64,000 bases of DNA from Candidatus Sulfomarinibacteraceae bacterium (GCA_963796455.1 CAWCLO010000004.1:672001-736000), one strand, 5' to 3'; positions 3,680-20,766 are shown, counted from the first letter of the stretch. Numbers and translations are program-made. Notes: a model not told the origin generated them from the letters alone.

Positions 3680-3725
3680 GGGTTCCACGTTGCATGGGTG
3701 CCGCGTTCACCATTGCGCCATTGTC
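3680..3725. repeat. Left-end GGGTGCCA-family motif doublet with a 30-bp extension
   Basis: GGGTTCCA 3680-3687 and GGGTGCCG 3696-3703. 3696-3725 (gggtgccgcgttcaccattgcgccattgtc) matches 11851-11880 (gggtgccacgttcacaattgcacagttgtc) at 25/30. Confidence 0.75.
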
Positions 3726-3935
3726 ATTTTCGAGAGATCGCTAAGTCATTGAGCGCCAGGTATTAGATTGTGGCGTTTGCTCGTGCAATGCCGTCTCCGG
3801 GTCATCAGGTGATACCTGCAAACCAGGCAAAACCATGCGTTCGGATGAAGGAAACCATCCAAACGGGCGATTGCGGTGAACAGTTCCTACTCCTATCGTT
3901 GAATATGAGGGCGTCTCGACACTATGGGGGTTGTA

Positions 3936-5222
3936 ATGAAATCAGCTTTTGTTCGGGGAATGCGGGTCGTTTTGTTTGCGGTGATCGCGATGGCTCTTTG
4001 CATTGCAGCCGGTCCCGCCGTGGCTCAAGGTCCGCCGATCTTCGACGTGCAGGAAATCGGCCCGGGGACCATCCCGGCAGACCTCAATAATCGGGGTGAG
4101 GTTGTCGGAGGAGCCAGGGGGCCCGTACCGGGCGGGTATGGATTTACCGCATTCTATTGGTTCGATGGGGTCCTCGTCGATCTTGGGGCCAACTGGGAAA
4201 ACGCGAGTTCTGCCCTGTCCGTGAACAATTCCGGCGTGATTCTCGGGACCGTTGAAGGTGTTGGCGATGAACTCGACAGGTTATTTGAAATCGATGCCGA
4301 AGGGAATATCAGTTACCCCGCGCCGTTCGACCCAGCGGTTGACGTGAGGGCGAAGGCGATCAACGATGAGGGCCAAATTGTAGGAACCCATAGCAGCACG
4401 AGTATTCCCTTTTTCTGGGATCGCACGACGGTGTATGACCTTGTCCCGAGTTGGGCGGTTCAGAGTTTTTTTGGCGGTCTCAATAACCTGGGTCAGGTCG
4501 CAGGGTCTTCCCGCGAGGATGGGTGCGGCAACTCCGGTTTTTTGTGGCAAATGAACTTTTTCACCGAAGTCGGCTCGTGCAACGATCGGATCGCGGCGAA
4601 TGACATCAACGACACCTCACAAATCGTTGGTTCCATGTTTTTTGCGGGTGAGAACCAGAAACACGCATTCGTTTACGAGGACTCACAGTTCACTGACCTG
4701 GGGGTTCTTGACGGCCAACAGGCAAGTGTTGCACGCAGCATCAATAACCAGGGTTGGATTGTCGGTGACTCGTCCTCGTCGATGCCACCGTCCGGGAGCG
4801 CGTTCATTTACATTGACGGGGTTATGTACGACCTCAACGACTATGTTTCTACCGAAAGCTGGCGTCTCACCAGGGCCCTCAAGATCAACGACCGCGGCCA
4901 GATACTCATGTTGGCCAATCTCACAACGAGCTTCGGGAGCACCTATCTCCTGCTGACACCCTCGGGAATTGATTCGATTCCAGGCCTCATTGAACTGATC
5001 GAATCCTACGAACTCCATCACGGTATCGAGCACAGTCTTTTGGTGAAGCTCGAGCACGCGAACGAGGCGGTCGCCGACGGAAACCTGAAACGCGCATGCC
5101 ATCGTCTCCAAGCGTTCATCAATCAGGTCAACGCACAAACGGGGAAGAAGATCACCGAAACCCAGGCGGAAGAGATTCTCGAAGCCGTCGACACTATTCG
5201 AGCTGCGCTGCCCTGCCCGTAG
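3936..5222 (+). CDS. Secreted HAF-repeat (DUF3466-like) protein with C-terminal FIMAH-like helical domain
   Basis: Signal peptide ending AVA-Q; repeated A..IN..G.IVG units with HAF/AF; C-terminal GIEHSLLVKLEHA...LQAFINQVNAQTGKKITETQAEEI. Start could also be 3924 or 3960. Confidence 0.8.
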   Translation: MKSAFVRGMRVVLFAVIAMALCIAAGPAVAQGPPIFDVQEIGPGTIPADLNNRGEVVGGARGPVPGGYGFTAFYWFDGVLVDLGANWENASSALSVNNSGVILGTVEGVGDELDRLFEIDAEGNISYPAPFDPAVDVRAKAINDEGQIVGTHSSTSIPFFWDRTTVYDLVPSWAVQSFFGGLNNLGQVAGSSREDGCGNSGFLWQMNFFTEVGSCNDRIAANDINDTSQIVGSMFFAGENQKHAFVYEDSQFTDLGVLDGQQASVARSINNQGWIVGDSSSSMPPSGSAFIYIDGVMYDLNDYVSTESWRLTRALKINDRGQILMLANLTTSFGSTYLLLTPSGIDSIPGLIELIESYELHHGIEHSLLVKLEHANEAVADGNLKRACHRLQAFINQVNAQTGKKITETQAEEILEAVDTIRAALPCP

Positions 5223-5243
5223 CGCACACCGTCGGTGCTTCAA

Positions 5244-5262
5244 TGGCACCCATGCATGTTCT
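5244..5262. repeat. TGGCACCCATGC motif
   Basis: tggcacccatgca 5244-5256 is the inverted complement of tgcatgggtgccg 3691-3703 (12/13), so the pair brackets the HAF gene. Confidence 0.75.
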
Positions 5263-5476
5263 TTTGGCACTCTCACTTCTAGAAAGTGAGAAATATTGTT
5301 GGAATTGCGTCGTCTAAGAGTCAAAGGAACTCTTTTGTGCGGACAACATCGGGTGCCGTTACCGTCGAGAAAGCGACCGAATCGGCAGAACGTGCCTCGT
5401 CTTTCCGCAAAATGGCATGCGTGGGTGGATCCGCGCGTATGAACATGCGAACCTGGCGTCACCTCAGGAGGTAACA

Positions 5477-6458
5477 ATGCCGACTCATCGTGAAGTTCGT
5501 CGATCCTTCGTTCTGATGACTGCCCTTGCCCTTTTCATCGGTTGCGGTGTCGTCCAGACCGAGCCCGAACCCTCGGCGGCCAAGGAAGTCGCGCCGCCCT
5601 TGCCGGCAATCGATTCGTTGGTCACGGCGGAGTGGCTGAGCGAGCACCTCGACGAACCGGATCTGGTGGTGCTGGACTGTACCGTGATGGTGGAGCAGGC
5701 CGAGGACGGCAGCATGCAGACCGTCAACGGCCGGGCCAACTATGACAGCGGGCATATTCCGTCCGCCGGCTTCGCGGATCTCATGGGAGATCTCGTCGAT
5801 GGTGAGAGCGATCTCGATTTCGCGATGCCGACACCTGAGGCCTTCGCGGCCGCCATGAGCGCGCTTGGCGTGAGTGACGATTCTCGAGTGGTCCTCTACG
5901 ACGCGATGGGCTCTTCGTGGGCGGCACGAGTCTGGTGGATGCTTCGCTGGATCGGCTTCGACCGCGCGGCTCTGCTCGACGGAGGTCTGGCGGCCTGGAC
6001 GGCCGAAGACCGTCCGCTGTCAACCGAGGCTGTCGCGCGGCCAGCGGGGACGCTGACCCCGGCTCCCCGGCCCGGAACTCATCGCCGATCGTGACGAGGT
6101 GCTCGCCGCGATTGATGACGCCGGAGTGCTCATTGTCGACGTCCTGCCGGAGCCGCACTACCGCGGAGAGATGGTCATGTACGCCCGCCCGGGTCACATC
6201 ACCAGCGCTGTGAACGTCTCGGTCATGGGGCTTTTTGACGAAACCGGCCATTTTCGATCGCAGGACGAGCTGGCCGCTCTGCACACGACCGATCACGATG
6301 CCCGCCACATCACATATTGCGGTGGCGGCATCGCCGCGTCGTCGAATGCCTTCGTCATGACCCGACTCGGTTTCACCAACGTCGCTGTCTATACCGCCTC
6401 GCTGCAGGAATGGACTGCCGATCCGGACCTACCGATGGAGACCGTGCCGGCGCAGTAG
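5477..6458 (+). CDS. Tandem-rhodanese sulfurtransferase (SseA/TST-like), probable lipoprotein; +1 frameshift near 6071
   Basis: AGGAGG RBS; LFIGC lipobox; LVTAEWL, YDSGHIPSA, AARVWWML and LLDGGLAAW in frame 1. RPGHI, active site YCGGGIAA and YTASLQEW in frame 2. Removing one C in cccggaactc restores PRPELIADRDEVL. Confidence 0.85.
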
Positions 6459-6616
6459 GGGAAGATGAGTATCTGGATCCGAAGATCCTGGATCGTTGCG
6501 TTGACGGCTACCAGAATGCCCAACTTCCCAAGATCCTCGGACCTGGAGCCTCTACACATGCCCCGTTCGCATCACCACAACCTATGGGCATTTGACAGGG
6601 TGACGGAAGAGTAAGA

Positions 6617-6679
6617 GGGCACCCATGTGAGAAAGCAAGATTGAATGATTACGAAGGGTGGCACCATGGCACCCATGGG
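6617..6679. repeat. TGGCACCC-family motifs (three copies)
   Basis: gggcacccatg 6617-6627; tggcacca-tggcacccatgg 6659-6678. Confidence 0.75.
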
Positions 6680-6770
6680 ACAGATGAATGTCAGGTCCGG
6701 AGTTCGAAGTTAGGTTAAACGGAACTGCGGAACTGCGGGCCTCGCTCCGAAAGAAAATGGCACCGAATAA

Positions 6771-7607
6771 TTATGGCGTCACCGATGACCACAAATCGGT
6801 GGTCCCCGACTCGAAACCATCGGCAAAGAGCGTCCCGGGCACGACCTCCTCGAAAGAGAAACCGACGCGGAGATCGTCGAAAAAGGTCGGTTGGCCGTTC
6901 ATCTGATCGCCTCGGATTGAGACGGTCAAGATTTTTCCGCCGCCGCTGTTCAGCAATTCGGTAGAGAATCCGTTGATCACCGGCAAGTTTGACTCGTCGA
7001 CGGGGTCGACCCAGAGCGTGACAACCTCGTCGTCGTCCAGGCCACCCGTGTTCGTGTCGCCGTACTCGATCCGGACGACGACAAGTTGCTTGTCGGCGGG
7101 CACGGTGCCACCGCTGGCGAGGCCGCTGATGCCGCCATTACCGACGATGTACGCTCCATCGCTAATCCCGAAAGAAAAGTCGACCGCCCCACCGCCGTCG
7201 AGTCGCACGAGCTCGAGCTCGAAAGTCATGTCTCCGTCGGCCCTCGGAGGAGCAATCAGGAAGCTCGCGTAGAACATATCGCCGTCGGTCTCATAGAGAA
7301 TATGTTCGGCCGAGGCGCTCCGTGTCGCGATGCGGGCTCCGTTGTCACCGGAAGGCCGGTCGTAGACGGCTTTGCCCGTGCCGGCCTCATCGTCGAGTTG
7401 AGTCTTGTTGACATAAAAGTTGCTGTTCGGAACAAGCGTCCAGTTGCCGATCAATCCGTCGGCCGGTCCCGCCGGGTCAGCCGAGATCAATACGTTGTCC
7501 GGATAGCCTGTGAAAGTATCCTCGATGATCGTTTGTGCCTGCAAAGAAGCAGCCGGCGATAACAGACACAGACCCATCACGCCTACCGGGATTCCGTGAA
7601 ATCTCAT
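6771..7607 (-). CDS. Secreted hypothetical protein with C-terminal LFADGFESG..W motif
   Basis: Signal peptide (...SLQA-Q); beta-rich body ending FFDDLRVG; terminal TLFADGFESGTTDLWSSVTP. Confidence 0.8.
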   Translation of the reverse strand: MRFHGIPVGVMGLCLLSPAASLQAQTIIEDTFTGYPDNVLISADPAGPADGLIGNWTLVPNSNFYVNKTQLDDEAGTGKAVYDRPSGDNGARIATRSASAEHILYETDGDMFYASFLIAPPRADGDMTFELELVRLDGGGAVDFSFGISDGAYIVGNGGISGLASGGTVPADKQLVVVRIEYGDTNTGGLDDDEVVTLWVDPVDESNLPVINGFSTELLNSGGGKILTVSIRGDQMNGQPTFFDDLRVGFSFEEVVPGTLFADGFESGTTDLWSSVTP

Positions 7608-7932
7608 TCGATTGCCCCCCGCGTTCGTTCAATCGTTCCTCGAATCGTGTCATCGGTGCCCGCCAGTTTCCTGGTTGTGGTCGGTGCCGACCGGGTTGAT
7701 CATTCGCGTTCGGCCTTGGTGACGTCCCGCCGGACAATCCAGGGGTGGGGCACGGTCACCTGAACTTGAGCAAGACCGGTGCCAACTTCTCCAGATTTCA
7801 ACAAGTGGTTTTGGAACAGCTATTTGGCTGCAGATGAGCCGCCGAGTTTCCGAACCCGGGCGAGTCGAGGAGCCACGCAGGGTGTGGCAACCCGACCCAC
7901 TCGGTCAGGTGCCGCGGTCGATCCACGAAAAA

Positions 7933-8008
7933 GGGTCCACCGATCACAACCTCACAATAAACACAGTTTCAGGCGATAGACATTGTGAGGTTGTGATCAG
8001 TGGCACCC
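7933..8008. repeat. ~76-bp hairpin element, copy 1 (REP/REPIN/MITE-like)
   Basis: Left arm gggt-ccaccgatcacaacctcacaat 7933-7958 pairs with right arm attgtgaggttgtgatcagtggcaccc 7982-8008 (one bulge, one mismatch); 23-nt loop aaacacagtttcaggcgatagac. Confidence 0.9.
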
Positions 8009-8031
8009 ATGCACCCATGTTCTGGCAATCA

Positions 8032-8060
8032 GGATGCCAGCTGGCACCCAGGTGGCACCC
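8032..8060. repeat. Empty palindrome GGATGCCA-GC-TGGCACCC plus an 11-bp-period doublet
   Basis: ggatgccagctggcacccaggtggcaccc; exact TGGCACCC at 8042 and 8053. Confidence 0.8.
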
Positions 8061-8113
8061 TTGTATGGGGTGCCCCTGATGCAGCTACACTGGCGGCACA
8101 TCGGAGGTGCCCT

Positions 8114-11100
8114 TTGGCCAGACTGAAGCTTTCTCATGCCCTAACGCTGTTGATCGTGGCGATGCCATGTGTGACCGCAGGAGCCCAGACCGCGCCTGAA
8201 AGCGCCATCGTTCCTGCGGAGCTCTTCTCCGGCCTCGAGTACCGCATGGTAGGGCCCTCCCGCGGGGGGCGGGTGACGACGGTGGCCGGTCACAGGGATC
8301 AGCTCGCGACCTTTTATATGGGTGCGAGCGGCGGCGGGGTGTGGAAGACGGAGGACGGCGGCCTGACATGGCGCAACGTTTCTGACGGCTCGTTCGCCAC
8401 GGGGTCCATCGGCGCTATCCGGACGGCCGATTCGAACCCCGATGTGGTGTATGTGGGAACCGGCTCGGACGGACTCCGGAGCAACGTCATCATCGGCAAA
8501 GGGGTCTACCGATCGGATGACGGTGGCACGACGTGGCGGCACCTTGGCCTCGAGGGCGTCGGCAATATCGGCGCCGTGCTGATCCATCCCGAGAATCCGG
8601 AGCTGGTCTACGTGGCGGCCATCGGCAACCCTTTCGCACCGAACCCCGAGCGAGGCGTCTACCGATCGCGGGACGGGGGGAGAGCTGGCAGAAGGTGCTT
8701 TTTGTGTCGGAAAAGACCGGCGCAGTGGATCTCGAGTTTGCCCCGGACGACCCGAGCAGAATCTACGCCTGCATGTGGCGCGCCGAGCGCAAGCCATGGA
8801 CCATCATCAGCGGCGGCCTCGAAGGCGGCGTCTACACTTCTCTCGACGGCGGTGACAGCTGGCAGCAGCTCACCGAAGGCCTGCCCAGCGGCCTGCGTGG
8901 CAAGGCGGATCTGGCCGTCTCGGCGGGCGATCCGGAGCGGGTTTACGTGCTCATCGAAGCGCCGGGCGACGAGGGCGGGCTGTACCGCTCCGACGATCGC
9001 GGCTCGAGCTGGCGTCAGGTCTCGGATTTCGACAAGATCCGCACCCGGCCCTTCTACTACTGCAATCTCGAGGCCCACCCCACAAACCCGGAGATCCTGT
9101 GGGCGATGAGCGAAGGCTTTTGGAAGTCCGAGGATGGGGGAGAGACCTGGAAGAAACAGAGAACACCCCACGGCGACAACCACGACATGTGGATCAATCC
9201 CTCGCACCCTGACCTGTTCATCCAGGCAAACGACGGCGGCGCCAACGTCACCCTCAACGGCGGCAAGACCTGGACGAGTCAGTACAACCAGCCGACTGCG
9301 GAGCTTTACCAGGTCGATGTGAGCGACGGCTTCCCATATCGCCTCTACGCCGGCCAGCAGGACAACACCACCATCTCGGTGCCGAGCTTTCCTCAGCGCG
9401 CCATGCCGGGAGGTCATACGGCTCTGTGGGAGGACCAGGGTGGATGCGAGACGGGCCCGGCAGTGCCCAAACCCGGCGATCCCGACATCGTCTACGCCAA
9501 TTGCAAGGGCCGATTCGGCGTCTTCAACCGACGAACCGGGCAGGAGCAGCAGTACTACGTGGGATTCGCCAACGTTTACGGCCACAACCCCAGGGATCTG
9601 GAGTACCGCTTCCAGCGGGTGGCGCCGATCCACGTCTCGCCCCACGATCCCGATCGCGTCTACCACGGCTCGCAGTTCGTGCACGTTACCGAGAACGGCG
9701 GCAGGACCTGGAAGACCATATCTCCCGACCTCACGGCGAACACACCGGAGACGCAGGTGGTTTCGGGAACTCCCATCACCATCGACGTCACCGGCGAAGA
9801 GCACTTCGCCACCCTCTACGAGATCCAGGAGTCACCCCACGAGCCGGGCGTCATCTGGGTAGGTGCCAACGACGGGCCGATCCACCTGACGCGCGACGGC
9901 GGCGCGACCTGGACCGAGGTCACCCCCGAAGGACTCGGTCCCCATGGCCGGGTGCAGACGATCGAGGTTTCGCCCCACGACCCGGCGGCGGCCTATGCGG
10001 CAATCCTCCGCTACCAGCTCGGTGACTTCTCGCCCCACGTCTACGCCACACGCGACTATGGTGCCAGCTGGTCGCGGCTGACAACCGGCGAAAACGGGAT
10101 CCCCGAAGACGTGCCCGTGCGGGTGGTACGAGAGGACCCGATGCGACCGGGGCTGCTGTACGCCGGTACCGAATTCGGCATGTACGTCTCCTTCGACGGC
10201 GGGGCGCAGTGGCAGGATCTGCAGCTCAACCTACCCGTCACACCGGTGACGGATCTCAAGCTGGTGCACAACGACCTGGTGCTTTCGACCATGGGCCGCA
10301 GCTTCTGGATTCTCTACGACCGGTCTCCCCTTCTCGAGGCCTCCGCCGAGCTCGCCACCGAAACCGCTCACCTGTATGCCGTGCAGGAAGCCGTCCGCCT
10401 CCACACCGGTGGCCGCTGGCGGCGACCGAGTGATGATGCAGCCCGCCCCCAGTACCCTGCGGCCGGTGCCAATATCAACTACTACCTCGCCGCGGAAGCG
10501 AACGGCGAGATGCGTGTGGAGATCTTCGACGACAACGGCACGCTTGTGCGCGAAATCGTGCCCGAGCCGCCGGATCCCGAGCAGGAATCCGAGTCCGAGG
10601 AGGTGGGGGAGGTTCGACTCCTCCGAAGATCCGGACGACACCATGGAGACGCCCGACGCGCCGCCCGAGAAACCTGCGCCCACACGCTGCAGACCACGGC
10701 GGGAATGCACCGCGTGGTTTGGGATCTGCGCCACACCGGCCCGACCGAACGACGGGTCAAAGATGAGGGTGAGGACGACGACGACGATCGCTCCAAGCTG
10801 CGCGGCCCCATGGTGCCGCCGGGCACCTACGAGGCGAGACTCCAGATGGGGGAGTGGAGTGCGAGACAACGATTCGAGGTGGTGATGGACCCGCGGGTCG
10901 AGGCCGAGGGCATCGGCCCCGCTGATGTCACGGTTCAAGCGGACTTCGCCCTCGCGGTCCGGGACGCCGTCAGCCAGGGCCAGAGATGCCGCGGATCGAA
11001 TCGAGGAGGCCATGAAGGGGCTCGACCAGGGCGAGCAGCGCGAACGGCTCGAGGGAATCAAGGCCAGGCTCATCACGCACGAGGTGCGCTATTCACAGCC

Positions 11101-11260
11101 CAAGCTGCTGGATCAGCTCGAGTACCTGTACCGCAACCACATCGGTGCCGACCAGCTGCCGGGGGCAGAGGCGCGAAGACGTTTCACAGTTCTCGAGGAC
11201 GAACTGGCAGTTCTTCTCGAAGACCTGGAACTCACGCTTAACGCCAAGAACCAGGATTGA
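8114..11260 (+). CDS. Secreted VPS10/sortilin-like BNR (Asp-box) glycosyl-hydrolase-type protein; frameshifted
   Basis: GGAGG RBS then TTG 8114; signal peptide; YRMVGPSRGGRV, many S.DGG.TW Asp boxes, PHGDNHDMWINP and LLYAGTEFG. Frameshifts at the G-run 8675-8680 and at 10977-10979, plus an apparent compensating pair near 10610/10682. Confidence 0.85.
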
Positions 11261-11296
11261 ACTGCCGTCTGTCGGGGCCTCCATTTCGCTTCACCT

Positions 11297-11430
11297 GGGT
11301 GACACGCTTTGCATTGTCTCGTCGTTCACGATAATGCAATGGAGAACCCGGTACCCATCAGCGTGACGTGTTCCTCCTATTTGAGGATGGCCTCCACGAT
11401 TTATGTTTGGTTGTGACCGTGGCACCGATG
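11297..11430. repeat. Degenerate motif cluster including a partial right arm of the hairpin element
   Basis: gggtgaca 11297, cggtacccat 11349; ggttgtgaccgtggcaccgatg 11409-11430 resembles ggttgtgatcagtggcacccatg at 7989-8011. Confidence 0.6.
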
Positions 11431-11444
11431 GTCCGGCGTTGGGA

Positions 11445-11836
11445 TCAGCGGGGCGCCGTTCGTCTCGACGCGCGCCGGGTCCCGATCGTGGAGAACTCGA
11501 CCGCATCGACCGGTCCCGACACCTCGATCACTTCCGCGTCCAGGCGCCGCCAGACCGCACCCTTCCCATCGACCTCGACTTCCGTGATCCGCAACGCTGT
11601 GTGAAGCCAGAAGTGGAAGGCGGTGACGCCCCCGGTCAGCGCCCTCACCGTCATGGTGTTGCTGCCGTTGATGGTTTCGGACTCGGGGTTGACGTCGAAG
11701 TCCAGACGGTAGTGGAGGACGTCGGTGCGCTCGTTGAGGGGATCGTTGATGCTCTTGAGCCGCAGCACTTCGGATTCTTCGGAGGATCCGGCATGGGCGG
11801 TCTTGGCACGCGAACAGACGTCGGTCGTGCCCGTCT
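11445..11836 (-). pseudogene. N-terminal-region fragment of an M1-family aminopeptidase-like gene
   Basis: Open frame ETGTTDVCSRAKTAH...DVLHYRLDFDVNPESETINGSNTMTVRAL...LRITEVEVDG resembles the M1 N-terminal beta domain. No signal peptide and no GXMEN/HEXXH domain. Confidence 0.65.
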
Positions 11837-11839
11837 CCA

Positions 11840-11880
11840 GGGTGCCACCAGGGTGCCACGTTCACAATTGCACAGTTGTC
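11840..11880. repeat. GGGTGCCA doublet (11-bp period) plus the 30-bp extension shared with 3696-3725
   Basis: gggtgcca-cca-gggtgcca-cgttcacaattgcacagttgtc. Confidence 0.85.
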
Positions 11881-11898
11881 AGGCTTCGTGAATCAAAA

Positions 11899-11979
11899 GG
11901 GTGCCGCCGATCGCAATCTAACCCACAACACAGTTTCAGGCGATAGACGTTGTGAGGTTGTAATCAGTGGCGCCCATGC
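11899..11979. repeat. ~76-bp hairpin element, copy 2
   Basis: gggtgccgccgatcgcaatctaacccacaacacagtttcaggcgatagacgttgtgaggttgtaatcagtggcgcccatgc. Loop aacacagtttcaggcgatagac is identical to copy 1; the left arm is degraded. Confidence 0.9.
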
Positions 11980-12004
11980 GGTCATATAATGAAATGAAGG
12001 GCAG

Positions 12005-12754
12005 ATGGCAAAGGCTTCATGGCGAGACGCATTCACGGTTGATCGGGTCTACCCGGAAGGGTTGCGGTGCCTGATTGAGTTGGTCCACCGTCACGTGCCG
12101 AAGGCTTCGTGGGGGATGGCCCCTACGGACCATTCGTGGCCTTGATCGAAAGAAACCTGGCCGACTGGGAAGCTGACGCGTGAGAGTCGTGGCCACCTGG
12201 TTGGGATGGGGATGGGGTCGATTTACGATCTCGGCGGGCCTGGGCACCGCGCACCTCAAGACGAGCGCGAGCAATTCGATCGCTTCGATGACGCGCTCCG
12301 CTGGATACACGGCCTCACCTGGACCTGTGCCGAGCAATGGGTCGCCCACCGGAAGCGATGGAACGCCCAACATGACCGCGCACTGCTCACAAAACTCGAG
12401 GTCCAACAGCAGGTGGTCATTTCGGCCAAGGAATGCCTTCGTTGCCGGTGGCAGGCGGCAGTTCGGTCGGACATGACAGTGGCGGTCAATACCCTCGAGA
12501 AGGAGCCCTTTCTGCGACAGCTTGTCACGCGCGGGGGCAAAGCGGTTTCTCGAGCCCTGTTGCGACCTCGCACGGCCAAACAGCTGGCTGGTCACGGAAA
12601 GCTTCGCGATGCTCTCATGGCGACGCTGCCTGACCAGGGCGTCAAGGTCTATAGCAAGCGCTATCCTACTCGTTGCCCAGCATGTCAAGGACGTCTTATC
12701 GGGACCTATCTCACCCTTGAGGAGGAGACGGTTCGCGCGTTGGTCAAAGGATGA
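12005..12754 (+). pseudogene. Hypothetical protein with two CxxC pairs (zinc-ribbon-like); 5' part interrupted
   Basis: ATG 12005 after gaaggg is in frame with ORF 12206-12754 but interrupted by TGA 12143-12145; CLRC and CPAC pairs downstream. Confidence 0.45.
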
Positions 12755-12757
12755 GCC

Positions 12758-13295
12758 GGGTGCCAGCTCCCGGACAGCCGCGATGGCATTTCGTTCTCCG
12801 ATTTCTGATCGACTGGGCGTTGATCGCATCTGCCTGACAGGGGTGTTTGTCGGGCCGTCCGCCCTGGTCGGCCTTGTCGGCCCGGCGATGGTCTGGGAAT
12901 TCGTTCATGCGTTTTACGGACTGTTCTTGAGCAACCTGCGGGTGGCGAAAGGCTCCCTGATGAGCTGGATTTTCGTCGCTTCAGTCTCGATTGTGGTTGT
13001 GATTTATGCCTTCGCCGTCAATGGCTGGGTTGTGCTGACCTTTGCAGTGCTTTCGACTCGGTATCTGCTTGCAGGTAATGCCGGGCAAATTCAGTCTGCT
13101 TTTGCCGACACTGTGCAGTATGTCTTTGCCGTCTTTCCAGCCGGCTTCCTCGCCTACGTGGCCACGCAGACGGCTGACCTGACGATGGCACAGGGCGTTG
13201 TCCTCTTTGCCGGGCTCTATTTCCTGGCGCGCTGGTTTTTTTCGAACTACTGGGATCCGTACCGCTGGCTCGGGGTCGACTGGCATCCAGGCTGA
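12758..13295 (+). pseudogene. Multi-pass membrane protein, 5'-truncated or frameshifted
   Basis: Hydrophobic ICLTGVFVGPSALV...WFFSNYWDPYRWLGVDWHPG. Upstream RWHFVLRFLIDWALIA lies in a different frame (shift near 12826). Confidence 0.5.
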
Positions 13296-13312
13296 ACCAA
13301 TTCGAAGATGGT

Positions 13313-13332
13313 CGGCACCCATGTGGCACCCA
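13313..13332. repeat. TGGCACCC doublet (11-bp period)
   Basis: cggcaccc-atg-tggcaccca. Confidence 0.8.
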
Positions 13333-13390
13333 AGCCGAGCCTCCGCTATCCTCTGCGTTGCCGTGTGCGCCCGGATCCGGAGGTCAAATC

Positions 13391-14170
13391 ATGCTGATCC
13401 TATTGTCCCCAGCCAAGAGTCTCGTCGAAGGACCTGCCGTCGACGGCCTGCCTGCCACCCAACCGGTTTTGCTCGATCAGACCGAAACACTGATGAAAAC
13501 GACTCGTCGTCTGAGCGCACCCAAGATCAAAAAACTGATGGGCGTCAGCGACCGACTCTCGGTCCTGAACCGCCAGCGCTTCCGGGATTGGACGACGCCC
13601 TTCACGACTGAAAATGCACGCCAGGCCGCGCTGATGTTCAGTGGAGATGTATACCGCGGTTTCGACGCAGCCACCCTCAGCGTCGAGGATCTCGCTTTTG
13701 CCCAGGACCACCTGGTGATCCTTTCCGGCCTTTACGGCGCCCTGCGTCCACTGGACCTGATCCAACCCTATCGCCTCGAGATGGGCACCCGGCTTAATAC
13801 GAGACGTGGCAAAGACCTCTATGCCTTCTGGGGCCGGCGCATCACGGACCGATTGAATGAGCTCACCGAGGGGCAGGAAGATCGCACCGTCGTCAACCTG
13901 GCCTCAAAGGAATACTTCAAAGCGGTCCAGCCTGAAAAACTCGCCGGTCCTCTCGTCACCCCGGTCTTCAAAGACGTCAAGGACGGCAAAGCACGATTCC
14001 TGTCATTCTTTGCCAAAGCGACCCGCGGCAAGATGGCGCGGTGGGCGATCCAGAATCGCATGTCCACGAAGGATCAACTGCGTGCCTTCGATGGCGGCGG
14101 CTACGTGTTGCAACCCGAACTCTCCGACGAGACGCACTGGGAGTTTCACCGCCCCGGAGTGAATTGCTGA
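13391..14170 (+). CDS. yaaA: Peroxide stress protein YaaA (UPF0246)
   Basis: GGAGG RBS; MLILLSPAKSL, FSGDVYRG, LSGLYGALRPLDLIQPYRLEMGT, VNLASKEY and SFFAKATRG. Confidence 0.93.
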   Translation: MLILLSPAKSLVEGPAVDGLPATQPVLLDQTETLMKTTRRLSAPKIKKLMGVSDRLSVLNRQRFRDWTTPFTTENARQAALMFSGDVYRGFDAATLSVEDLAFAQDHLVILSGLYGALRPLDLIQPYRLEMGTRLNTRRGKDLYAFWGRRITDRLNELTEGQEDRTVVNLASKEYFKAVQPEKLAGPLVTPVFKDVKDGKARFLSFFAKATRGKMARWAIQNRMSTKDQLRAFDGGGYVLQPELSDETHWEFHRPGVNC

Positions 14171-14280
14171 TGGGTGAGGGGTGGGTCTTCAACTTTGTTG
14201 CCGGTGACGAGGGCTCGATCGACCGGATCGACTTCGAGTCGGATGGTCTGACCATGATCGTGAAACGCGTTGGAGAATAG
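14170..14280 (+). pseudogene. Short 3' gene remnant (C-terminal beta segment, DUF3471-like)
   Basis: MGEGWVFNFVAGDEGSIDRIDFESDGLTMIVKRVGE* abuts the yaaA stop and is followed by a motif doublet. Confidence 0.4.
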
Positions 14281-14291
14281 TCGGGGAACGG

Positions 14292-14315
14292 CCAGGGTGC
14301 GCCTCCAGGGTGCCA
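14292..14315. repeat. GGGTGCCA-family doublet
   Basis: ccagggtgcgcctccagggtgcca; exact copy at 14308. Confidence 0.75.
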
Positions 14316-14328
14316 ATGAATCTCTCGA

Positions 14329-14778
14329 CTATCGTTGGTTGCTGTTGTCCATGTCCGACATGATCATCCAGCGGCCGTCAGGGTCTTTATGCAAGGTGAG
14401 CGTGAACTTTCCGATATCGGGTTCGCCGCTGTGCCGCGAAAACCCTCCAATGATATAGCCCAGCGAACCTTCTGTCGCGAAAGCAAGTGCCCGGAGCACA
14501 AGCGCGCCGCCGCTATTTTTGTAGCGAAGTTCGATCTTTTTCCTGCCCCGGACCGGCGGCCTTCCACTCGAGAGGACAAAGCCATCTTCGGTGAAAAGGG
14601 CTGCAAGGGCTTTTTCGTCTTTGGCCCGCCAGGCTTCCTCGTAGTCAGTGAGAACGCGAGCGAGTTCCGGGGGGAGCGAGATCGTCGGCTCGGATGGTTC
14701 CTCTGCGCCACACACCGCGCCGCACCCGACCACCAAGGCCGCAGAAACGGCCACCAAAACCGGACCAACACTCTTCAT
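14329..14778 (-). CDS. Exported NTF2-like (DUF4440/YybH) protein
   Basis: Signal/lipobox LVVGC; YEEAWRAKD...LAALFTEDG, PVRGRKKI and GKFTLTLHKDPDGRWMI. Confidence 0.85.
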   Translation of the reverse strand: MKSVGPVLVAVSAALVVGCGAVCGAEEPSEPTISLPPELARVLTDYEEAWRAKDEKALAALFTEDGFVLSSGRPPVRGRKKIELRYKNSGGALVLRALAFATEGSLGYIIGGFSRHSGEPDIGKFTLTLHKDPDGRWMIMSDMDNSNQR

Positions 14779-14840
14779 TTTTCCCCTCCGCCTCTTTCTC
14801 TACAGTGCCGCGGCGGCGCCGATGTGGGAACCGGAAAAGA

Positions 14841-14864
14841 GGGCGCCACACTCGAGTGGCACCC
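14841..14864. repeat. Mini-palindrome GGGCGCCAC-ACTCGA-GTGGCACCC
   Basis: Inverted motif pair with a 6-bp spacer between the two NTF2-like genes. Confidence 0.8.
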
Positions 14865-14873
14865 ACGCAATTT

Positions 14874-15239
14874 CTAGCTTTCCACGTGGAAGAGTTTGTT
14901 GTAGATCCGCCACTGACCGTCGGTGTTGAGGAGCGACAGAGTGTCCAGGAAGGTCATGCCCAGGTAGTCGTCGCGCACCCGGGCGACTGCTGTCTTCCCG
15001 GCGATGTCGAGCGAGACGACTTCGAGCCGTGCGTTCTCCCCCTTCTCCCGGGGAGAGGGCTGCTGACTTTCCACGAAACCGGCGAAATCGACCACCGACA
15101 TCTCGTGCAGCTCGCCGTTGATCTCGCCGGTGATCTTGGCATTTGGATGGAATGCTGAGTGGGCCTTCTCGCCGCTCGACTCGAACATGGAGTCGAAGTA
15201 GGTCTGGATCGTGTCCTTGATTGCTTGCTCGTCGCTCAT
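14874..15239 (-). CDS. NTF2-like (Lumazine_bd_2-type) protein
   Basis: GGAGG RBS; AIKDTIQTYFD, AFHPNA, IAGKTAVARV and FLDTLSLLNTDGQWRIYNKLF. Confidence 0.87.
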   Translation of the reverse strand: MSDEQAIKDTIQTYFDSMFESSGEKAHSAFHPNAKITGEINGELHEMSVVDFAGFVESQQPSPREKGENARLEVVSLDIAGKTAVARVRDDYLGMTFLDTLSLLNTDGQWRIYNKLFHVES

Positions 15240-15386
15240 TTCTCACCTCCGGAATCGTGGATATTAATATTGTTGTTTTGTTTCGCAACCGACGAGAGCT
15301 GATGGGAATTCCCCAATCACCCAACCCGCACACCACATCTGAAGGTATGTACGTGGAATCCATGCGATCCAGGACAGAAAGGGTAT

Positions 15387-16521
15387 TCAGGTTCCGGTGA
15401 TTCGGCCCAGCGCCTCGGCCAAAGGTGCGACTGCGCGGTCCGAGTCGCCCAACTTCTCCAGGCCGAACAAGCCCACACGAAACGTGCGGAAATCGGACGG
15501 TTCATCGCACATCAACGGGACACCGGCTGCGATTTGCAGGCCCTGTGCAAGGAACTTGCTGCCGTTCTGGATTTCCGGATCGTCCGTGTAATAAACGACC
15601 ACACCTGGCGCCTGGTAGCCTTCGTCGGCAACACTTTTGAAGCCGTGGCTCTGCAGAAGCTCACGGACTTTCTTACCCAGTTCCCACTGTTTTTCACGCA
15701 TGGTTTCGAGCCCGTAGGAACAGGTCTCCATCATGTTGTCCCGAAACGTTTTCAGTGCGTCGGTTGGAAGTGTTGCATGGTAGGCATGTCCGCCGTTTTC
15801 ATAGGCTCGCATGATGTCGAGCCATTTCCGCAGGTCACAGGCGAAGCTGTTGCTGGTGGTTTTGCCAACTCGTTCCAGTGCGTTCTCGCCCAGCATGACG
15901 AGGGCACCGCATGGAGAGGAACTCCATCCTTTTTGAGGGGCGGTGATCAACACGTCAACACCGCTGGCTTTCATATCGACCCACACACAACCGGAAGCGA
16001 CACTATCAAGAACAAATAAACCACCATGTTCATGAACGGCTTCGGCAACGGCGCGGATGTATTCATCCGGCAGGATCATGCCCGAGGACGTGTCCACGTG
16101 CGGCGCAAAAACGACATCCGGTTTTTCGAGTCGGATCGTATCCGTCACTTCGCCGATGGCGGGTGGCACGAACGGCGCCTCTGGTCCGGCAGCCCTCTGC
16201 CGGGCCTGCAGAACGGTGAGTCTCGTCGGTGAGGCCGCCCATCTCAATGATCTGAGACCAGCGGAAACTGAAAAAACCATTTCGGATCACCAGGCACTTC
16301 TGACCGGTGGCGAACTGGCGGGCAACCGACTCCATCCCGTAGGTGCCGCCACCCGGCACGACGATCACAGCCTCAGCGTTGTAAACGTCCTTGAGGGTGG
16401 TTGAAATATCCCTCATCACCTGCTGGAAAGTCTGTGACATGTGGTTCAGGGAGCGGTCGGTGAACACGACCGAGTATTCGAGCAGTCCTTCCGGATCAAC
16501 CTCAGGCAACAAGCTGGTCAT
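15387..16521 (-). CDS. Class V PLP aminotransferase (alanine-glyoxylate/serine-pyruvate type); frameshift near 16220
   Basis: GLLEYSVVFTDRSLNHMS, VPGGGTYGMESVARQ and RNGFFSFRW in one frame; HVDTSSG, LDSVASG, TAPQKGW (PLP lysine) and FRVGLFGLEKL in another. Confidence 0.88.
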
Positions 16522-16613
16522 TCGCGGGTTCCTCCTTGAGTTTTCTGGGTGGTCAAACGCAATGATCTCTTCAGGTTCACCCAGGAAACGCGGTTCTTCA
16601 TCGCCAGTATTGT

Positions 16614-16751
16614 AGTGGTACCCGTGGGAAGCTGCCCGACGTTTTCGGGGCGCCCGCTGTTTTCGCCAGGGCACCGATGTTCGCTACCACCCTCGATCGT
16701 CGACCCCCACATTGGCCCTGCTCCGTTGTAATGTTGTGATCAGTGCCACCC
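16614..16751. repeat. Motif variants and a third right arm of the hairpin element
   Basis: tggtaccc 16616; gggcaccgatg near 16669; cgttgtaatgttgtgatcagtgccaccc 16724-16751 resembles cattgtgaggttgtgatcagtggcaccc at 7981-8008. Confidence 0.7.
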
Positions 16752-16811
16752 GAGCATGGACAGTAACCTTTCGTTACCCGTCGGGTATGATCACCCCCAG
16801 GGAGAAAGTCC

Positions 16812-19541
16812 ATGGCCCAGTGTCCATCATGCTCGGCGGAAATACCGGAGAGTTCGAACAGCTGTCCGAGCTGCGGTGCGGATCTTGATCTCTCGTCGCT
16901 GATGACCGAGACCGGGCTCTCCCAGGATGGAGTCCCCACGCAACCGCCGACGCCGGGACCGCAATCAGGCCCCTCGGCCGTAGGAATCACGAGCGATCTC
17001 CAGGGAGACGGCGACGAGCACCAACCCGGCACCATTCTCGGCGGGAGGTACCGTGTGGTTGGATTGCTCGGGCGCGGCGGCATGGGTTCGGTATATCGGG
17101 CCGATGATCTCACCCTCGGGCAGCCGGTCGCGCTGAAGTTTCTTCCCGATGAACTGGCCGCCAATCTCGATCGTCTCGAGCGTTTCCGGGCCGAGGTCCG
17201 GGTCTCCCGCCAGGTGTCCCACGCCAACGTCTGCCGCGTTCACGACATCGGTGAAGCCGACGGCAAGATCTTTCTTTCCATGGAACTGGTGGATGGAGGA
17301 GATCTCTCGTCGCTGCTCAAGCGGGTCGGTCGCCTGCCCACCGATCGCGGTCTGGAGATCGCCCGCCAACTCTGCGCGGGGCTGGCGGCGGCGCACGACC
17401 GCGGTGTGCTTCACCGCGACCTCAAACCGGCCAACGTGATGATCGACGCAGAAGGTCGGGTTCGAATCGCCGACTTCGGGTTGGCGGGAATCGCCGGCGG
17501 GTTCGAAGGATCCGAGATTCAAAGCGGAACGCCCGCCTATATGGCCCCTGAAACCCTGAGTGGGCGAGAGGTCACCACCCGATCCGACATCTACGCTCTG
17601 GGGCTGGTCCTGTACGAGCTTTTCACGGGAGCCAGGGCTTTCCGCGGCGCGAGTATCGCCGAACTCACCAAAAAGCACACCGAAGAGTCGGCCACCGATC
17701 CAACCGCGATCATCGGCGATCTCGACCCTCAGATCGAACGCGTGATCCTGCAATGCCTCGAGAAGGACCCGCTGGCGAGGCCCGAATCCGCGTTGGCCGT
17801 GGCGATGGCGCTGCCCGGCGGCGACCCGCTGGCCGCGGCCCTGGCCGCCGGTGAAACTCCGTCTCCCGAACTGGTTGCCCAGGCGGGGGCCGAGGGAACC
17901 CTCAAACCCTGGCAAGGCTGGGCCCTCCTGGCCTCGGTTGTGGTCTCTCTTCTTGCGTTTGTCGCCGCCAGCTCGTACCGGCATATCCTTTTTTTCGAGC
18001 CCATGGATCGCCCACCCGAAGTGCAGCTCGATCGGGCCGTCGAGTTGCTGACCACTCTCGGACTCGATGTTCCGACCACCGATCGGATCACGGGCTTTTC
18101 AGCCGACTTCAATATCCTCCGCGAGATCAACAATGACGGGGCCTCGCCTGAAGAACTTGACGCGCTTTCCGAAGGTGAGATCTCGGTGATCGGGTTCTGG
18201 CTCAGGGCGGCGCCATCGGAATTGGTGGCCGAGCGCATCTCAGGTCGGGTGTCGAGGACGCGACCGGCGCGAAACATGGCCGGCGAGCTCTTCGCCTCAT
18301 TCGACAGCCACGGTCGACTGCGTTTTCTCGACGTCGTGCCCGACGAAATGATGGCGTCAGATGGCTCGTCCCCGATGAACACCACAGAGGAGGCCTGGCA
18401 GGGCGTGTTGGCAGCGGCGGGTCTCGATTCCCAGGCATTTGAAGAGTCGATACCGCTTTGGTCTCCGCCCCGGTTTATCGACGAGCTTCGCGCCTGGTCA
18501 TTGCGGGGAGTGGGAGAAGGGGATCTCGCCGTCAATCGGATCGAGGTCGGGAGTCGATCCGGACGACCGGTTTATCTGCGGACCGGAACCTCCCTCGACG
18601 AGGCGGTGGGCCGATCGGCCTCGACCCGCGGATCAGACCTCGGACAGGCATTGAATGCCGGGCTCATCGTGGTGGTTTTGATCGTCGGTGGCCTCATCGC
18701 GCGCCGGAACCTACGCCGCGGTCGAGGAGATTTGCGGGGGTCGTGGCGCATGGCGGGGTTCGTATTCGCCCTCGGAATGACAAGCTGGTTGGTCTCGGCT
18801 CACCATGCTTTCGGCGCCGGCAGGGAGTTGAATCTTTTTGTGCTCGCGGCGGGCGGTTCGTTGTTCATTGCGGGTTTTGTGTGGTTGCTCTACGTCGCTC
18901 TCGAACCCGAGGTCCGGCGGCATTGGCCCAAACGCCTCATCTCCTGGCAGCGTATGTTGGCCAGGAGCTATCGCGATCCCTTGGTAGGACGGCACGTGCT
19001 GGTGGGTCTTCTCATCGGAACCAGCATGAATCTGCTTGTTGCGTTGATTGCCATCGTCTCCTCGATGCTCAATACTTCAGCCCTCGAACTCAGCGCGTCC
19101 GGGATGGCTCACCTGACCGGAACCGGGTTCGTGGTCGGGTCGGTTCTGGCCCAGGCCGGCCAGGCGATCTTCGCCGGCGTCTTCATCACGGTACTCGTCC
19201 TTCTCGTGAGACTCGTCCTGCGTCGGACCTGGGCCGCGGTGGCATTGTCTGTAGCAATTATTGTCGCGATGAATGTGCTCGGGTCGGAGGACCCATTCTG
19301 GGACGGTTTGGCCTCGACGGTCATCCTCGCCGCGGTCATGGCTGCGCTCCTTCGTTTTGGTCTGCTTTCTCTGATTGCTGTCGTCTTTGTCGTCAACGTT
19401 CTCCAGGTCATCCCGCAGACTATATCCCTGTCGGCGTGGTATTTTCCGGCGACAGCGATTCCGGTGCTCGTCGTGCTGGCTCTCGCGGCAGCCGCGTTCG
19501 CGGCCTCCCTCGGCCGCCAGTCGTGGTTCGGCTCAGACTAG
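16812..19541 (+). CDS. Hanks-type Ser/Thr protein kinase with N-terminal zinc ribbon and C-terminal multi-TM region
   Basis: CPSC...CPSC; GRGGMGSVY, VALK, HRDLKPAN, DFG, GTPAYMAPE and SDIYALG; extracytoplasmic loop followed by many hydrophobic helices. Confidence 0.93.
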   Translation: MAQCPSCSAEIPESSNSCPSCGADLDLSSLMTETGLSQDGVPTQPPTPGPQSGPSAVGITSDLQGDGDEHQPGTILGGRYRVVGLLGRGGMGSVYRADDLTLGQPVALKFLPDELAANLDRLERFRAEVRVSRQVSHANVCRVHDIGEADGKIFLSMELVDGGDLSSLLKRVGRLPTDRGLEIARQLCAGLAAAHDRGVLHRDLKPANVMIDAEGRVRIADFGLAGIAGGFEGSEIQSGTPAYMAPETLSGREVTTRSDIYALGLVLYELFTGARAFRGASIAELTKKHTEESATDPTAIIGDLDPQIERVILQCLEKDPLARPESALAVAMALPGGDPLAAALAAGETPSPELVAQAGAEGTLKPWQGWALLASVVVSLLAFVAASSYRHILFFEPMDRPPEVQLDRAVELLTTLGLDVPTTDRITGFSADFNILREINNDGASPEELDALSEGEISVIGFWLRAAPSELVAERISGRVSRTRPARNMAGELFASFDSHGRLRFLDVVPDEMMASDGSSPMNTTEEAWQGVLAAAGLDSQAFEESIPLWSPPRFIDELRAWSLRGVGEGDLAVNRIEVGSRSGRPVYLRTGTSLDEAVGRSASTRGSDLGQALNAGLIVVVLIVGGLIARRNLRRGRGDLRGSWRMAGFVFALGMTSWLVSAHHAFGAGRELNLFVLAAGGSLFIAGFVWLLYVALEPEVRRHWPKRLISWQRMLARSYRDPLVGRHVLVGLLIGTSMNLLVALIAIVSSMLNTSALELSASGMAHLTGTGFVVGSVLAQAGQAIFAGVFITVLVLLVRLVLRRTWAAVALSVAIIVAMNVLGSEDPFWDGLASTVILAAVMAALLRFGLLSLIAVVFVVNVLQVIPQTISLSAWYFPATAIPVLVVLALAAAAFAASLGRQSWFGSD

Positions 19542-19621
19542 ATAGGGAGTGCCGCCCGAATCGACACGTGCTTTTTTCAGGACGGCACCATGGTGGAGCC
19601 AGAGCGCAGGCACCTCACGTA

Positions 19622-20704
19622 TCAGCGCACGGCGTCGAAAATGTGCGTGTAGAGGAATTCGATCGGAGCGTTCTGCTCCTGCCGGCCTCGGGCGCCGGCG
19701 GTGACCACGACGACCATGTCAAGCTCGGGTGCGACAAAGATGTACTGGCCCTTGAAGCCGAATGCGCCGTAGACATCCTGCGTGCCGCTACCCCCGGGAG
19801 CCGGGGGCAGTACCCACCACCAATAGCCGTAACCGACGACCCGGTCACGCTGACCCTCGAGCTCGACCTGTCGTGACAGTGAGTCTGCGACCCAGGAGGT
19901 AGGCAGGATTTGTTTGCCGTCCCAACGCCCCTTTTGCAGGTACAACAGCCCGAGCTTGGCCATGTCCTTGGAGCGGAGGTGCAAACCACCCCCGGTATGC
20001 GGGTGCCCCTCGGCGTTGCGATACCAGCGGCTCTGCTCGATTCCCATTGGCGCGAACAGGTATTTTTCAGCAAAGGCGTCGGCGTGCATGCCGGTGCGCT
20101 CTTTGAGGATCGCGGAGGTCAGGATCACCGCTCCCGAGTCATAGCGAAAGCTCGTTCCGGGCTCAGCGATCATGGGTCGATCGAGAATGAACTTCGTCCA
20201 TCCCCGGCTCAGGCGGTTGAGCTGAAAATGAGGGGAGTCCGAACCGCGCTCGTGATAGTCCGTGCCGCTGCGCATGGTCAGCAGATCTTCGAGAGTTATC
20301 TCTCGCTTGCGCTCATCCAGGTTTTCGATGTCGTCGATTTCGGGAAAGAAGGCCAGGGCCCTCTCGTCCACCCCCTCGATCTTGCCTTGGCTGATGGCGA
20401 TACCGACGAGGGCCGAGGTGAAACTCTTGCTGACCGATTGCTGCTCGTGAAGCTCCTCGGCGCCGTGCCCGTTGAAGTACTCCTCGAGCACGAGCCGCCC
20501 GTTGCGAACGATCAGCAGACTGTGAATGTTGCGGATCTCGTTCTTACGCAGAGCTGCGACGAGGTTGTCGAGGCGTTCGCCGTCCAGACTCTGCTCGGCG
20601 GGAGTCGAGCGGATCCAGGACTCGGTCGGCCGGGGTGACTCCCCGGAGGCAGGAATGCAGGCCGAACAAACCAGGACGACCAGCAGGATTGCGGATCGGA
20701 TCAT
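19622..20704 (-). CDS. Serine hydrolase (class C beta-lactamase/6-aminohexanoate-dimer hydrolase family), exported
   Basis: SVSK (SxxK), LLTMRSG, FRYDS, GYGYWWW and GFKGQYIFV; signal peptide. Confidence 0.9.
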   Translation of the reverse strand: MIRSAILLVVLVCSACIPASGESPRPTESWIRSTPAEQSLDGERLDNLVAALRKNEIRNIHSLLIVRNGRLVLEEYFNGHGAEELHEQQSVSKSFTSALVGIAISQGKIEGVDERALAFFPEIDDIENLDERKREITLEDLLTMRSGTDYHERGSDSPHFQLNRLSRGWTKFILDRPMIAEPGTSFRYDSGAVILTSAILKERTGMHADAFAEKYLFAPMGIEQSRWYRNAEGHPHTGGGLHLRSKDMAKLGLLYLQKGRWDGKQILPTSWVADSLSRQVELEGQRDRVVGYGYWWWVLPPAPGGSGTQDVYGAFGFKGQYIFVAPELDMVVVVTAGARGRQEQNAPIEFLYTHIFDAVR

Positions 20705-20742
20705 GATCAGAAGATACGGCCTAGGGCATCCTCGGGTTTACC

Positions 20743-20766
20743 TGGGTGTCACGATGGTGGCACCCA
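20743..20766. repeat. Mini-palindrome TGGGTGTCAC-GATG-GTGGCACCCA
   Basis: Inverted motif pair between the divergent serine hydrolase and lipase genes. Confidence 0.8.

Follow-up and report, generated by a model that had tools for sequence, protein, structure and literature searches.

In the 64,000-nt stretch of a Candidatus Sulfomarinibacteraceae genome analysed here (GCA_963796455.1, CAWCLO010000004.1:672001-736000; hereafter the window, and G000 for the genome), an 18-nt palindrome, GGATGCCAGCTGGCACCC on the + strand at 8032-8049 and GGGTGCCAGCTGGCATCC read on the − strand, recurs as two separate halves, GGGTGCCAG at 12758-12766 and CTGGCATCC at 13280-13288, which were both located by searching the window. 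Membrane-protein coding sequence lies between these halves, and the locus therefore raises the question of whether the two places are the empty and the filled form of one insertion site. The original prediction had taken them so, with 12758-13288 filled by a gene fragment of ~510 bp between 9-nt inverted ends, and had placed both in a size series of one element whose inverted ends enclose variable cargo. The sequences quoted for it were all present, the 18-mer at 8032 and its halves at 12758 and 13280, and two small palindromes with gaps of 6 nt (14841-14864) and 4 nt (20744-20765) were confirmed as well, as were the hairpins of ~85 nt. The explanation that we favour, with a probability of roughly 0.85, has two parts: GGGTGCCAC and GTGGCACCC would be the outer tips of the terminal inverted repeats (TIRs) of TIRYT-type elements (TIRtrons), and the pair at 12758 and 13280 would be a coincidence within an ordinary gene.

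Both halves of the split palindrome are coding sequence in one conserved gene, and the contrast between a closed and a split site was not borne out. The membrane-protein gene occupies 12751-13295 on the + strand and encodes 181 aa once a G is read after position 12825, with both 9-mers inside it. Because the window reads exactly MSRVPAPGQPRW from ATG 12751, GGGTGCCAG corresponds to codons for S-R-V-P-A in the region of codons 3-5, and CTGGCATCC encodes the D-W-H-P of a C-terminal VDWHPG that is kept in four of the five aligned sequences. A search of 5.8 billion clusters returned four homologues of 175-181 aa with 57-89% identity, all of which align from the N-terminal MSRVPAPGQ through the C-terminal VDWHPG and begin with MSRVPAPGQPRW or a near variant of it. 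The start that had been described as unclean is the ATG at 12751, which shares bases with the upstream gene's TGA stop in the sequence ATGA; the break comes further in, where one G is absent after 12825 and the first 25 aa and the remainder of the protein fall into different frames. A 198-nt public contig with no other difference has the extra G at this place, as does a second, more diverged contig, and with it the text reads LIDWALIGICLTG as in the homologues. Since the extra G stands in an otherwise identical contig, the unclean start is most likely a one-base assembly indel, and the supposed fragment is most likely an intact gene with one G dropped from the assembly. The public runs gave a word share of at most 0.17 in all holders, with only short contigs on the stretch and parts of it without cover.

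Collinearity through both motifs and beyond the left one, the kind of outcome named in advance as speaking against a filled site, is what the comparison with relatives revealed. The protein gave matches with E ≤ 0.001 in 4 of the 61 genomes searched, G000 included, and besides G000 only G021, of the same genus, has it near full length, as an 81% identical copy. Its DNA aligns with window 11993-13298 over 1308 nt with 83% identity, a span that takes in both motifs and the whole upstream gene and reaches 765 nt to the left of the left motif, at whose position G021 has ATGAATCGAACGCTCGAT instead of GGGTGCCAG. In G008, the only relative with a deleted form of it, a remnant of the same module (locus L003, G008:C32 1407-1596) carries a deletion of ~970 nt that joins ~12239 to ~13209, away from the motifs; the junction of this deletion lies at a short GC-rich microhomology. 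The closed 18-mer, either variant allowed, was present in only one of the 77 family genomes searched, namely G000 itself.

The statistics of the 9-mer are weak. With up to one mismatch it occurs 28 times in the window against an expected 19.1 ± 3.9, a count reached by 1 of 100 shuffles, and the fold of the 18-mer at 8032-8049 does not surpass that of shuffled sequence (z = 0.14). The 5.02-Mb genome has 74 left-then-right pairs that stand 100-700 nt apart with at most one mismatch per half, or 0.94 per 64 kb, and the split pair is therefore at the chance level. The case for a filled site draws on three facts: the two halves agree with the closed 18-mer in every base, the T variant included; exact pairs with 0-2000 nt between the halves are scarce, with two in the genome (both those of the original prediction) against 0.38 expected; and tip-only palindromes occur nearby. 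Set against the coding role of both halves in a conserved 181-aa protein, the collinearity of G021 without the left motif, the intactness of the gene once the G is read, the single closed form, the displaced deletion in G008 and the chance rate of near-exact pairs, these facts leave the empty-and-filled-site explanation hardly any chance at all, and a false lead at 12758-13288 is thereby removed.

The short motif itself is a different matter. Its 8-mer core GGGTGCCA has 13 copies in the window where 2.27 ± 1.43 are expected, a number that none of 100 shuffles reached; 12 of these copies fall within 5244-20765. Genome-wide the core occurs 226 times, which by our own estimate is about the level set by base composition; its enrichment is therefore regional, with enriched zones at C4:600-700 kb and at the ends of contigs C6 and C7. 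When the 20-nt pattern of the hairpin arms was searched in contigs of one genome per species, 82 stretches matched, nearly all of them by record title from metagenome-assembled genomes (MAGs) of Thermoanaerobaculia, Sulfomarinibacteraceae, Holophagae or Acidobacteriota. Eighty loci were fetched, nine of which were set aside (seven with other taxon labels and two acidobacterial, all without the tip continuation), and 72 copies were counted. Most of these copies (61 of 72) run on into GCACCC. An inverted partner exists for 26, of which 22 are separated from it by 20-26 nt, and 16 are followed after the arm by further tip-like units. Homologues of the Y1 proteins of G000 adjoin the motif in L046/L047, which are one element, and in L081, with short remnants in seven more loci.

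The element L046/L047 (also L110) is complete and spans 1977 bp, with a left TIR, GGGTGCCACTGATCACAACCTCACAAC, at 1-27 and a right TIR, GTTGTGAGGTTGTGATCAGTGGCACCC, at 1951-1977. Its transposase (P0008; 328 aa, encoded at 93-1079) matches Pfam Y1_Tnp with 35.2 bits (cut-off 23) and has the motifs NHYH and YVHLNP, and genes for a Phd/YefM antitoxin and a ParE toxin lie between the transposase gene and the right TIR. The transposase family is present in 51 of 61 family genomes. Among 21 loci examined, 15 have clean TIR pairs of ~27-31 nt, which fall into several subfamilies and all have (G)GGTGCCAC, GGTACCAC or GGTGCCAGG as their tips. Together with a pair on contig C4 of G000 itself these make 17 full elements, 16 of which are 1065-1262 bp long, the 1977-bp L110 being the exception. 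Between the upstream arm and the start there are 32-131 nt, and between the end of the protein match and the downstream arm 57-181 nt (874 nt in L110); several autonomous copies have tandem left ends. TIRYT-type elements are common in Thermoanaerobaculales (Acidobacteriota). As a separate observation, in L021 and L024, two contigs of the same MAG, the arm breaks off after ...GATCAGTG, and one unrelated sequence, shared by both, takes its place; other DNA may have been inserted into the arm at a fixed point.

The arms in the window are identical or close to the TIRs of these whole elements. Arms were scored in bits against a weight matrix derived from 28 arms flanking the transposase genes of relatives. 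G000 contains 56 arms of at least 14 bits against 8 in a reversed-genome null, and 28 of at least 20 bits against none; 22 of the 56 lie within C4:600-700 kb. The window has five arms of at least 14 bits, at 3696, 8008, 11851, 11975 and 16751, and none in its remaining 47 kb. Besides these it holds weaker left arms, tandem tip units with an 11-nt period and tip-only palindromes (at 14841, 20744 and, weakly, 8032). Judged by this sequence match, the repeat tip of the window, (G)GGTGCCAC / GTGGCACCC, and likewise GGGTGCCAC...GTGGCACCC, are to be read as tips of TIRs.

The clearest copy is a TIR dimer at 7933-8008, a hairpin with its left arm at 7933-7958, a spacer at 7959-7981 and its right arm at 7982-8008. 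The arms are 95% complementary and the single-stranded DNA (ssDNA) fold reaches -24.9 kcal/mol (z = -6.6); the right arm scores 28.5 bits and is identical to the right TIR of the full element L110/L046 in a relative. A second TIR dimer at 11899-11976 is decayed, with a right arm of 15.1 bits and a fold no better than shuffles (z = -1.2). Direct copies of ~85 nt, 7928-8012 and 11895-11979, are 84% identical with the spacer included (repeat family D1). This repeat has arms ending in GTGGCACCC and recurs in part at 16726-16756. Upstream of the second dimer, at 11833-11882 on the + strand, a tandem left-type tip is followed by a full orphan arm (GGGTGCCACGTTCACAATTGCACAGTT from 11851; 29.0 bits) of a second TIR subfamily, which also flanks transposase genes in L117, L123 and L132. 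Two further orphan arms lie on the + strand: one at 3680-3727 with its tip at the left (GGGTGCCGCGTTCACCATTGCGCCATT from 3696, preceded by a partial tip copy GGGTTCCACGTTGCAT; 26.8 bits), and a right-type arm TTGTAATGTTGTGATCAGTGCCACCC at 16726-16756 upstream of a kinase gene (repeat family D2; 21.2 bits), where the orthologous gap of relatives has other TIR subfamilies or no arm.

The 18-nt palindrome belongs to a pile of tip units at 8009-8075, in which GGATGCCAGCTGGCACCC at 8032-8049 is accompanied by a tandem CTGGCACCCAG / GTGGCACCCTT at 8041-8062 and an inverted GGGTGCC at 8068-8074. On the + strand, a bare tip unit TGGCACCCATG with no arm of at least 14 bits directly follows the stop of a HAF-like gene (5244-5253), three tip units, GGCACCCATG, GTGGCACC and ATGGCACCCATGG, share a gap of convergent genes (6618-6677), the tandem units GGCACCCATG / TGGCACCC lie 17 nt past the stop of the membrane-protein gene (13312-13331), and the tandem left-type units GGGTGCGCCTCCA / GGGTGCCA occupy 14291-14316 (repeat family D9). 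Tip-only palindromes are formed at 14841-14864 by GGGCGCCAC, 6 nt and GTGGCACCC (DNA fold z = -2.3) and at 20744-20765 by GGGTGTCAC, 4 nt and GTGGCACCC (z = -4.5, with none of 200 shuffles as good). Genome-wide there are ten such palindromes against four in the null, eight of the ten within C4:606-693 kb. An origin in TIR tips accounts for the presence of this one short motif in most of the window's intergenic gaps from 3.7 to 21 kb.

The predicted size series thus stands in part. A series of one element family with inverted ends does exist in the relatives, with tip-only palindromes, dimers of ~80 nt and ~118 nt, transposase units of 1.07-1.26 kb and a 1977-bp toxin-antitoxin unit as its members; the membrane-protein gene is not among them, and none of the window's genes emerged as cargo. 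For the DUF4440 gene, which has only 8-9-nt tips at its ends, and the HAF gene, with one good arm and one bare tip, the series likewise did not extend to a demonstrated unit.

The class to which these elements are assigned was described as TIRtrons or TIRYT (Di Nocera, De Gregorio & Rocco 2013, BMC Genomics 14:522, PMC3733652) and is treated as the same as TnpA-REP subclass 2.1 in Quentin et al. 2018 (PMC6006769). By these papers, Acidobacteria form a sharply defined TIRYT group (PMC3733652), subclass 2.1 transposases have a C-terminal helix-turn-helix extension of the type Bac_DnaA_C, HTH_23 or HTH_28 (PMC6006769), and neither paper, as far as its available text goes, reports a bench study of TIRYT elements. 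The elements of the relatives agree with this description in that their transposase, ~330 aa long, is of the RAYT-like Y1/HUH type with an HUH and a catalytic-Tyr motif (its C-terminal region may resemble a helix-turn-helix), that the gene is flanked by TIRs rather than by REP hairpins or stem-loops, and that the TIRs also form repeated families of single arms, dimers and clusters. They differ in that the MAG lineage of Thermoanaerobaculales lies outside the published surveys, and that the window holds orphan arms only. The sharp-ended dimers of 76-80 nt and 118 nt, the 11-nt tip tandems and the Phd/ParE cargo find no mention in the available text of PMC3733652 and PMC6006769.

Several points weigh against the favoured explanation. 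The tip here is (G)GGTGCCAC, GGTACCAC or GGTGCCAGG and not GGGGWSAS, the motif published for many TIRYT TIRs in PMC3733652; since that paper also notes TIRs unrelated to the motif, GGGGWSAS is not strictly required. Residues 237-285 of P0008 match Bac_DnaA_C (E = 2.2e-5) with 24.8 bits, below the Pfam cut-off of 31.5, and the copies of G000 match it more weakly. At the 17 full elements there was no target-site duplication and no conserved target sequence. In G000 no transposase of the matching subfamily was found, and its three TIRYT genes, 39-41% identical to the cognate transposase, have other TIRs. Both exact 9-mers of the palindrome recur 4.7 kb apart, which coincidence accounts for only moderately well and which stays as a mild residual oddity without an explanation. 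Finally, the orientation test discussed below rests on crude gene calls of the longest open reading frames.

Several other known systems fit less well. REPINs, as treated in 'Curiosities of REPINs and RAYTs' (Bertels & Rainey, PMC3337134), are by the available text of that paper similar in being two inverted short repeats with a short spacer that form a hairpin, non-autonomous and presumably mobilised by a related Y1 transposase, and in lying outside genes as single copies and doublets. In contrast to a repetitive extragenic palindromic (REP) unit, which is a palindrome with a GTAG (or CGTC) head, the 27-nt arm lacks a GTAG head and is self-complementary only in TGATCA; the associated Y1 genes are bounded by plain TIRs, whereas REPs flank the RAYT gene; and unlike REPINs the arms are low in copy number (~56 in G000) and regionally clustered rather than dispersed. 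Imperfect palindromes of 60-140 nt among the accessory modules of a variable region also recall integrons and their attC sites. An integron cassette array has an IntI-type tyrosine recombinase with attI and co-oriented cassettes that each end in attC. Here, however, the three tyrosine recombinase (Phage_integrase) matches of G000 are on C3 (142 kb), C10 (594 kb) and C4 (878 kb), away from the window, the genes run in both orientations, arms are not at every junction, and the repeat bounds a Y1 gene in relatives. IS200/IS605 elements (IS608, ISDra2) end in subterminal hairpins instead of TIRs, and their insertion point is 3' of a fixed tetra- or pentanucleotide. The HUH Y1 transposase and the presumed ssDNA substrate are shared with them, but the relatives' elements have TIRs, and no fixed target was seen at 17 elements. 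Miniature inverted-repeat transposable elements are short, non-coding, multi-copy units with TIRs at their ends and target-site duplications around them. Short multi-copy units with TIRs and sharp ends do occur here, and a target-site duplication was seen neither at 17 full elements nor at the four dimers. The repeat in the window is therefore not a strict REP/REPIN, not an integron and not an IS200/IS605 element.

A quite different explanation is that the repeat is a cis-regulatory site for a local set of stress and accessory genes, for example either a site for a response regulator on 7-nt direct repeats 11 nt apart or a promoter element. The tandem GGCACCC-N4-GGCACCC units do have an 11-nt period, many copies in the window lie 40-170 nt upstream of gene starts, units of the GGCACC type are also found upstream of the orthologues of the 6771-7923 gene in G013, G012 and G015, and the neighbours include a catalase-peroxidase-like peroxidase, YaaA, an old-yellow-enzyme-type reductase and an aldo-keto reductase. 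Yet the copies show no orientation bias, the downstream gene being co-oriented with 24 and opposed to 26 of 56 intergenic copies, and this random orientation to the flanking genes argues against a promoter. Moreover, the same 27-nt sequence bounds transposase genes as inverted repeats, the multi-copy dimers have sharp ends, and exactness over 20-27 nt across many species with unrelated flanks is unlike regulator sites, all of which makes a regulatory role very unlikely. A sigma-54 promoter was considered by eye and rejected; TGGCAC occurs, but no TGC stands at the right distance from it, and conservation is lacking in the bases that follow.

The question of what moved the window's copies leads to the transposase source. 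All six Y1_Tnp matches of G000 lie outside the window, and the window with its 100-kb surroundings has many arms and no cognate transposase; in the window stretch neither an integrase nor a transposase was found. An association with a RAYT inside G000 was tried and dropped, since none of the six Y1_Tnp loci has the arm of the window's hairpins or a correctly placed GGCACCC tip; the link came from the relatives only. Because the TIRYT genes of G000, in an assembly 90.5% complete, carry other TIRs, the window's copies are orphans, and their ends are likely inactive; the cognate gene could, however, be absent merely through a gap in this assembly. The TIRs of the pair on contig C4 have the tip AGGTGCCAGGTA. 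This pair, at G000:C4:1143501-1147383 (L094 and L095), consists of two nearly identical TIRYT genes 3 kb apart, and one of the two has extra partial tip copies in its upstream TIR region.

Signs of mobility come from the relatives. On contig C12 of G021 (L109), four near-identical arm dimers of 118 nt lie within 10 kb (5752-5895, 11422-11565, 12767-12910 and 14800-14942 of L109); they are alike exactly from GGGTGCC to GGCACCCA, their flanks are unrelated, and no target-site duplication was found at any of the four. In three of the four the left flank ends in TTCG, and some flanks are partial tip copies. The gap upstream of a conserved aminotransferase gene (window 15387-16674) is occupied by arms whose subfamily differs among the window, G001, G008 and G005, whereas G017 and G019 have no arm there. 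In the syntenic region after the rhodanese genes, G021 has 16 arms in 15 kb and G008 seven in 20 kb, and the gene content differs.

Under the TIRYT explanation, the window's copies would be orphan or non-autonomous remains of past insertions. The dimers of ~80 nt may represent a mobile miniature form, presumably moved in trans as single-strand hairpins, like REPINs by RAYTs, and the 11-nt tip tandems and tip-only palindromes could be scars left at the same spots by repeated insertion, by partial duplication of the ends and by deletion. TIR elements would tend to pile up in variable regions, and synteny breaks would coincide with elements because of this. Thermoanaerobaculales would then offer a natural test series for TIRYT movement, with autonomous, cargo-bearing and miniature-dimer forms and an insertion polymorphism at one orthologous site.

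A bolder version makes the TIR tips the joints at which an HUH transposase shuffles genes, with the DUF4440 gene (14308-14864) and the HAF gene (3696-5251) as cargo. In its favour, a Phd/ParE pair lies inside the TIRs of one full element, the synteny with G021 is interrupted on one side at the hairpin (11993) and on the other at the tip tandem (13298), the hot spot downstream of the rhodanese genes is arm-rich in G021 and G008 with different gene content, and each of the two genes is flanked by a left-type and a right-type tip that are correctly oriented. However, the flanks of the DUF4440 gene match as 8-9-nt tips only, the HAF gene has a full arm on one side only, and in 76 other family genomes the DUF4440 gene has no usable homologue, the single match being 32% identical. 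The BNR gene lies outside its flanking arms, since the tips face the gene, and synteny always breaks between genes, which is also where the repeats lie. We consider such cargo traffic in the window quite improbable. In its general form, in which the arms would be working joints of an ssDNA HUH-transposase system that swaps accessory modules in hot spots of Thermoanaerobaculales, the idea is unlikely. If it held, any DNA between a left and a right arm would be mobilisable, from nothing to a toxin-antitoxin pair to whole genes, and tip-only palindromes and 11-nt tandems would be excision scars, an integrase-free counterpart of integron cassette traffic.

The remaining features concern the genes around the repeats. 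The gene upstream of the membrane-protein gene, at 12005-12754 on the + strand, is the first of a two-gene module and has no assigned function; in the assembly it contains an in-frame stop and an out-of-frame stretch, and a tblastn comparison with the 269-aa open frame of G021 gave 69% identity over 252 aa with one stop. The module (12005-13295; L002 620-1971) encodes a protein of ~250-270 aa with a C-terminal CPAC motif and the 181-aa membrane protein, neither of which matched a Pfam family. The gene at 6771-7923 and the BNR/sortilin gene at 8000-11241 are each split over two frames. Together with those at 12825 and 12005-12754, these frameshifts are probably one-base assembly indels and not pseudogenes; such suspected indels make intact genes look broken and would mislead annotation. 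Searches of the window with Rfam at gathering thresholds gave no match, and a tRNA scan found no genes. No integrase was found in the arm-rich zone, which comprises C4:600-672 kb (L005-L008) and window 1-24 kb. This zone is full of accessory genes of redox and stress type: besides the peroxidase, YaaA, the old-yellow-enzyme-type reductase and the aldo-keto reductase named above, it contains genes for a zinc-type dehydrogenase, a gamma-glutamyltranspeptidase, rhodaneses and two RND pumps.

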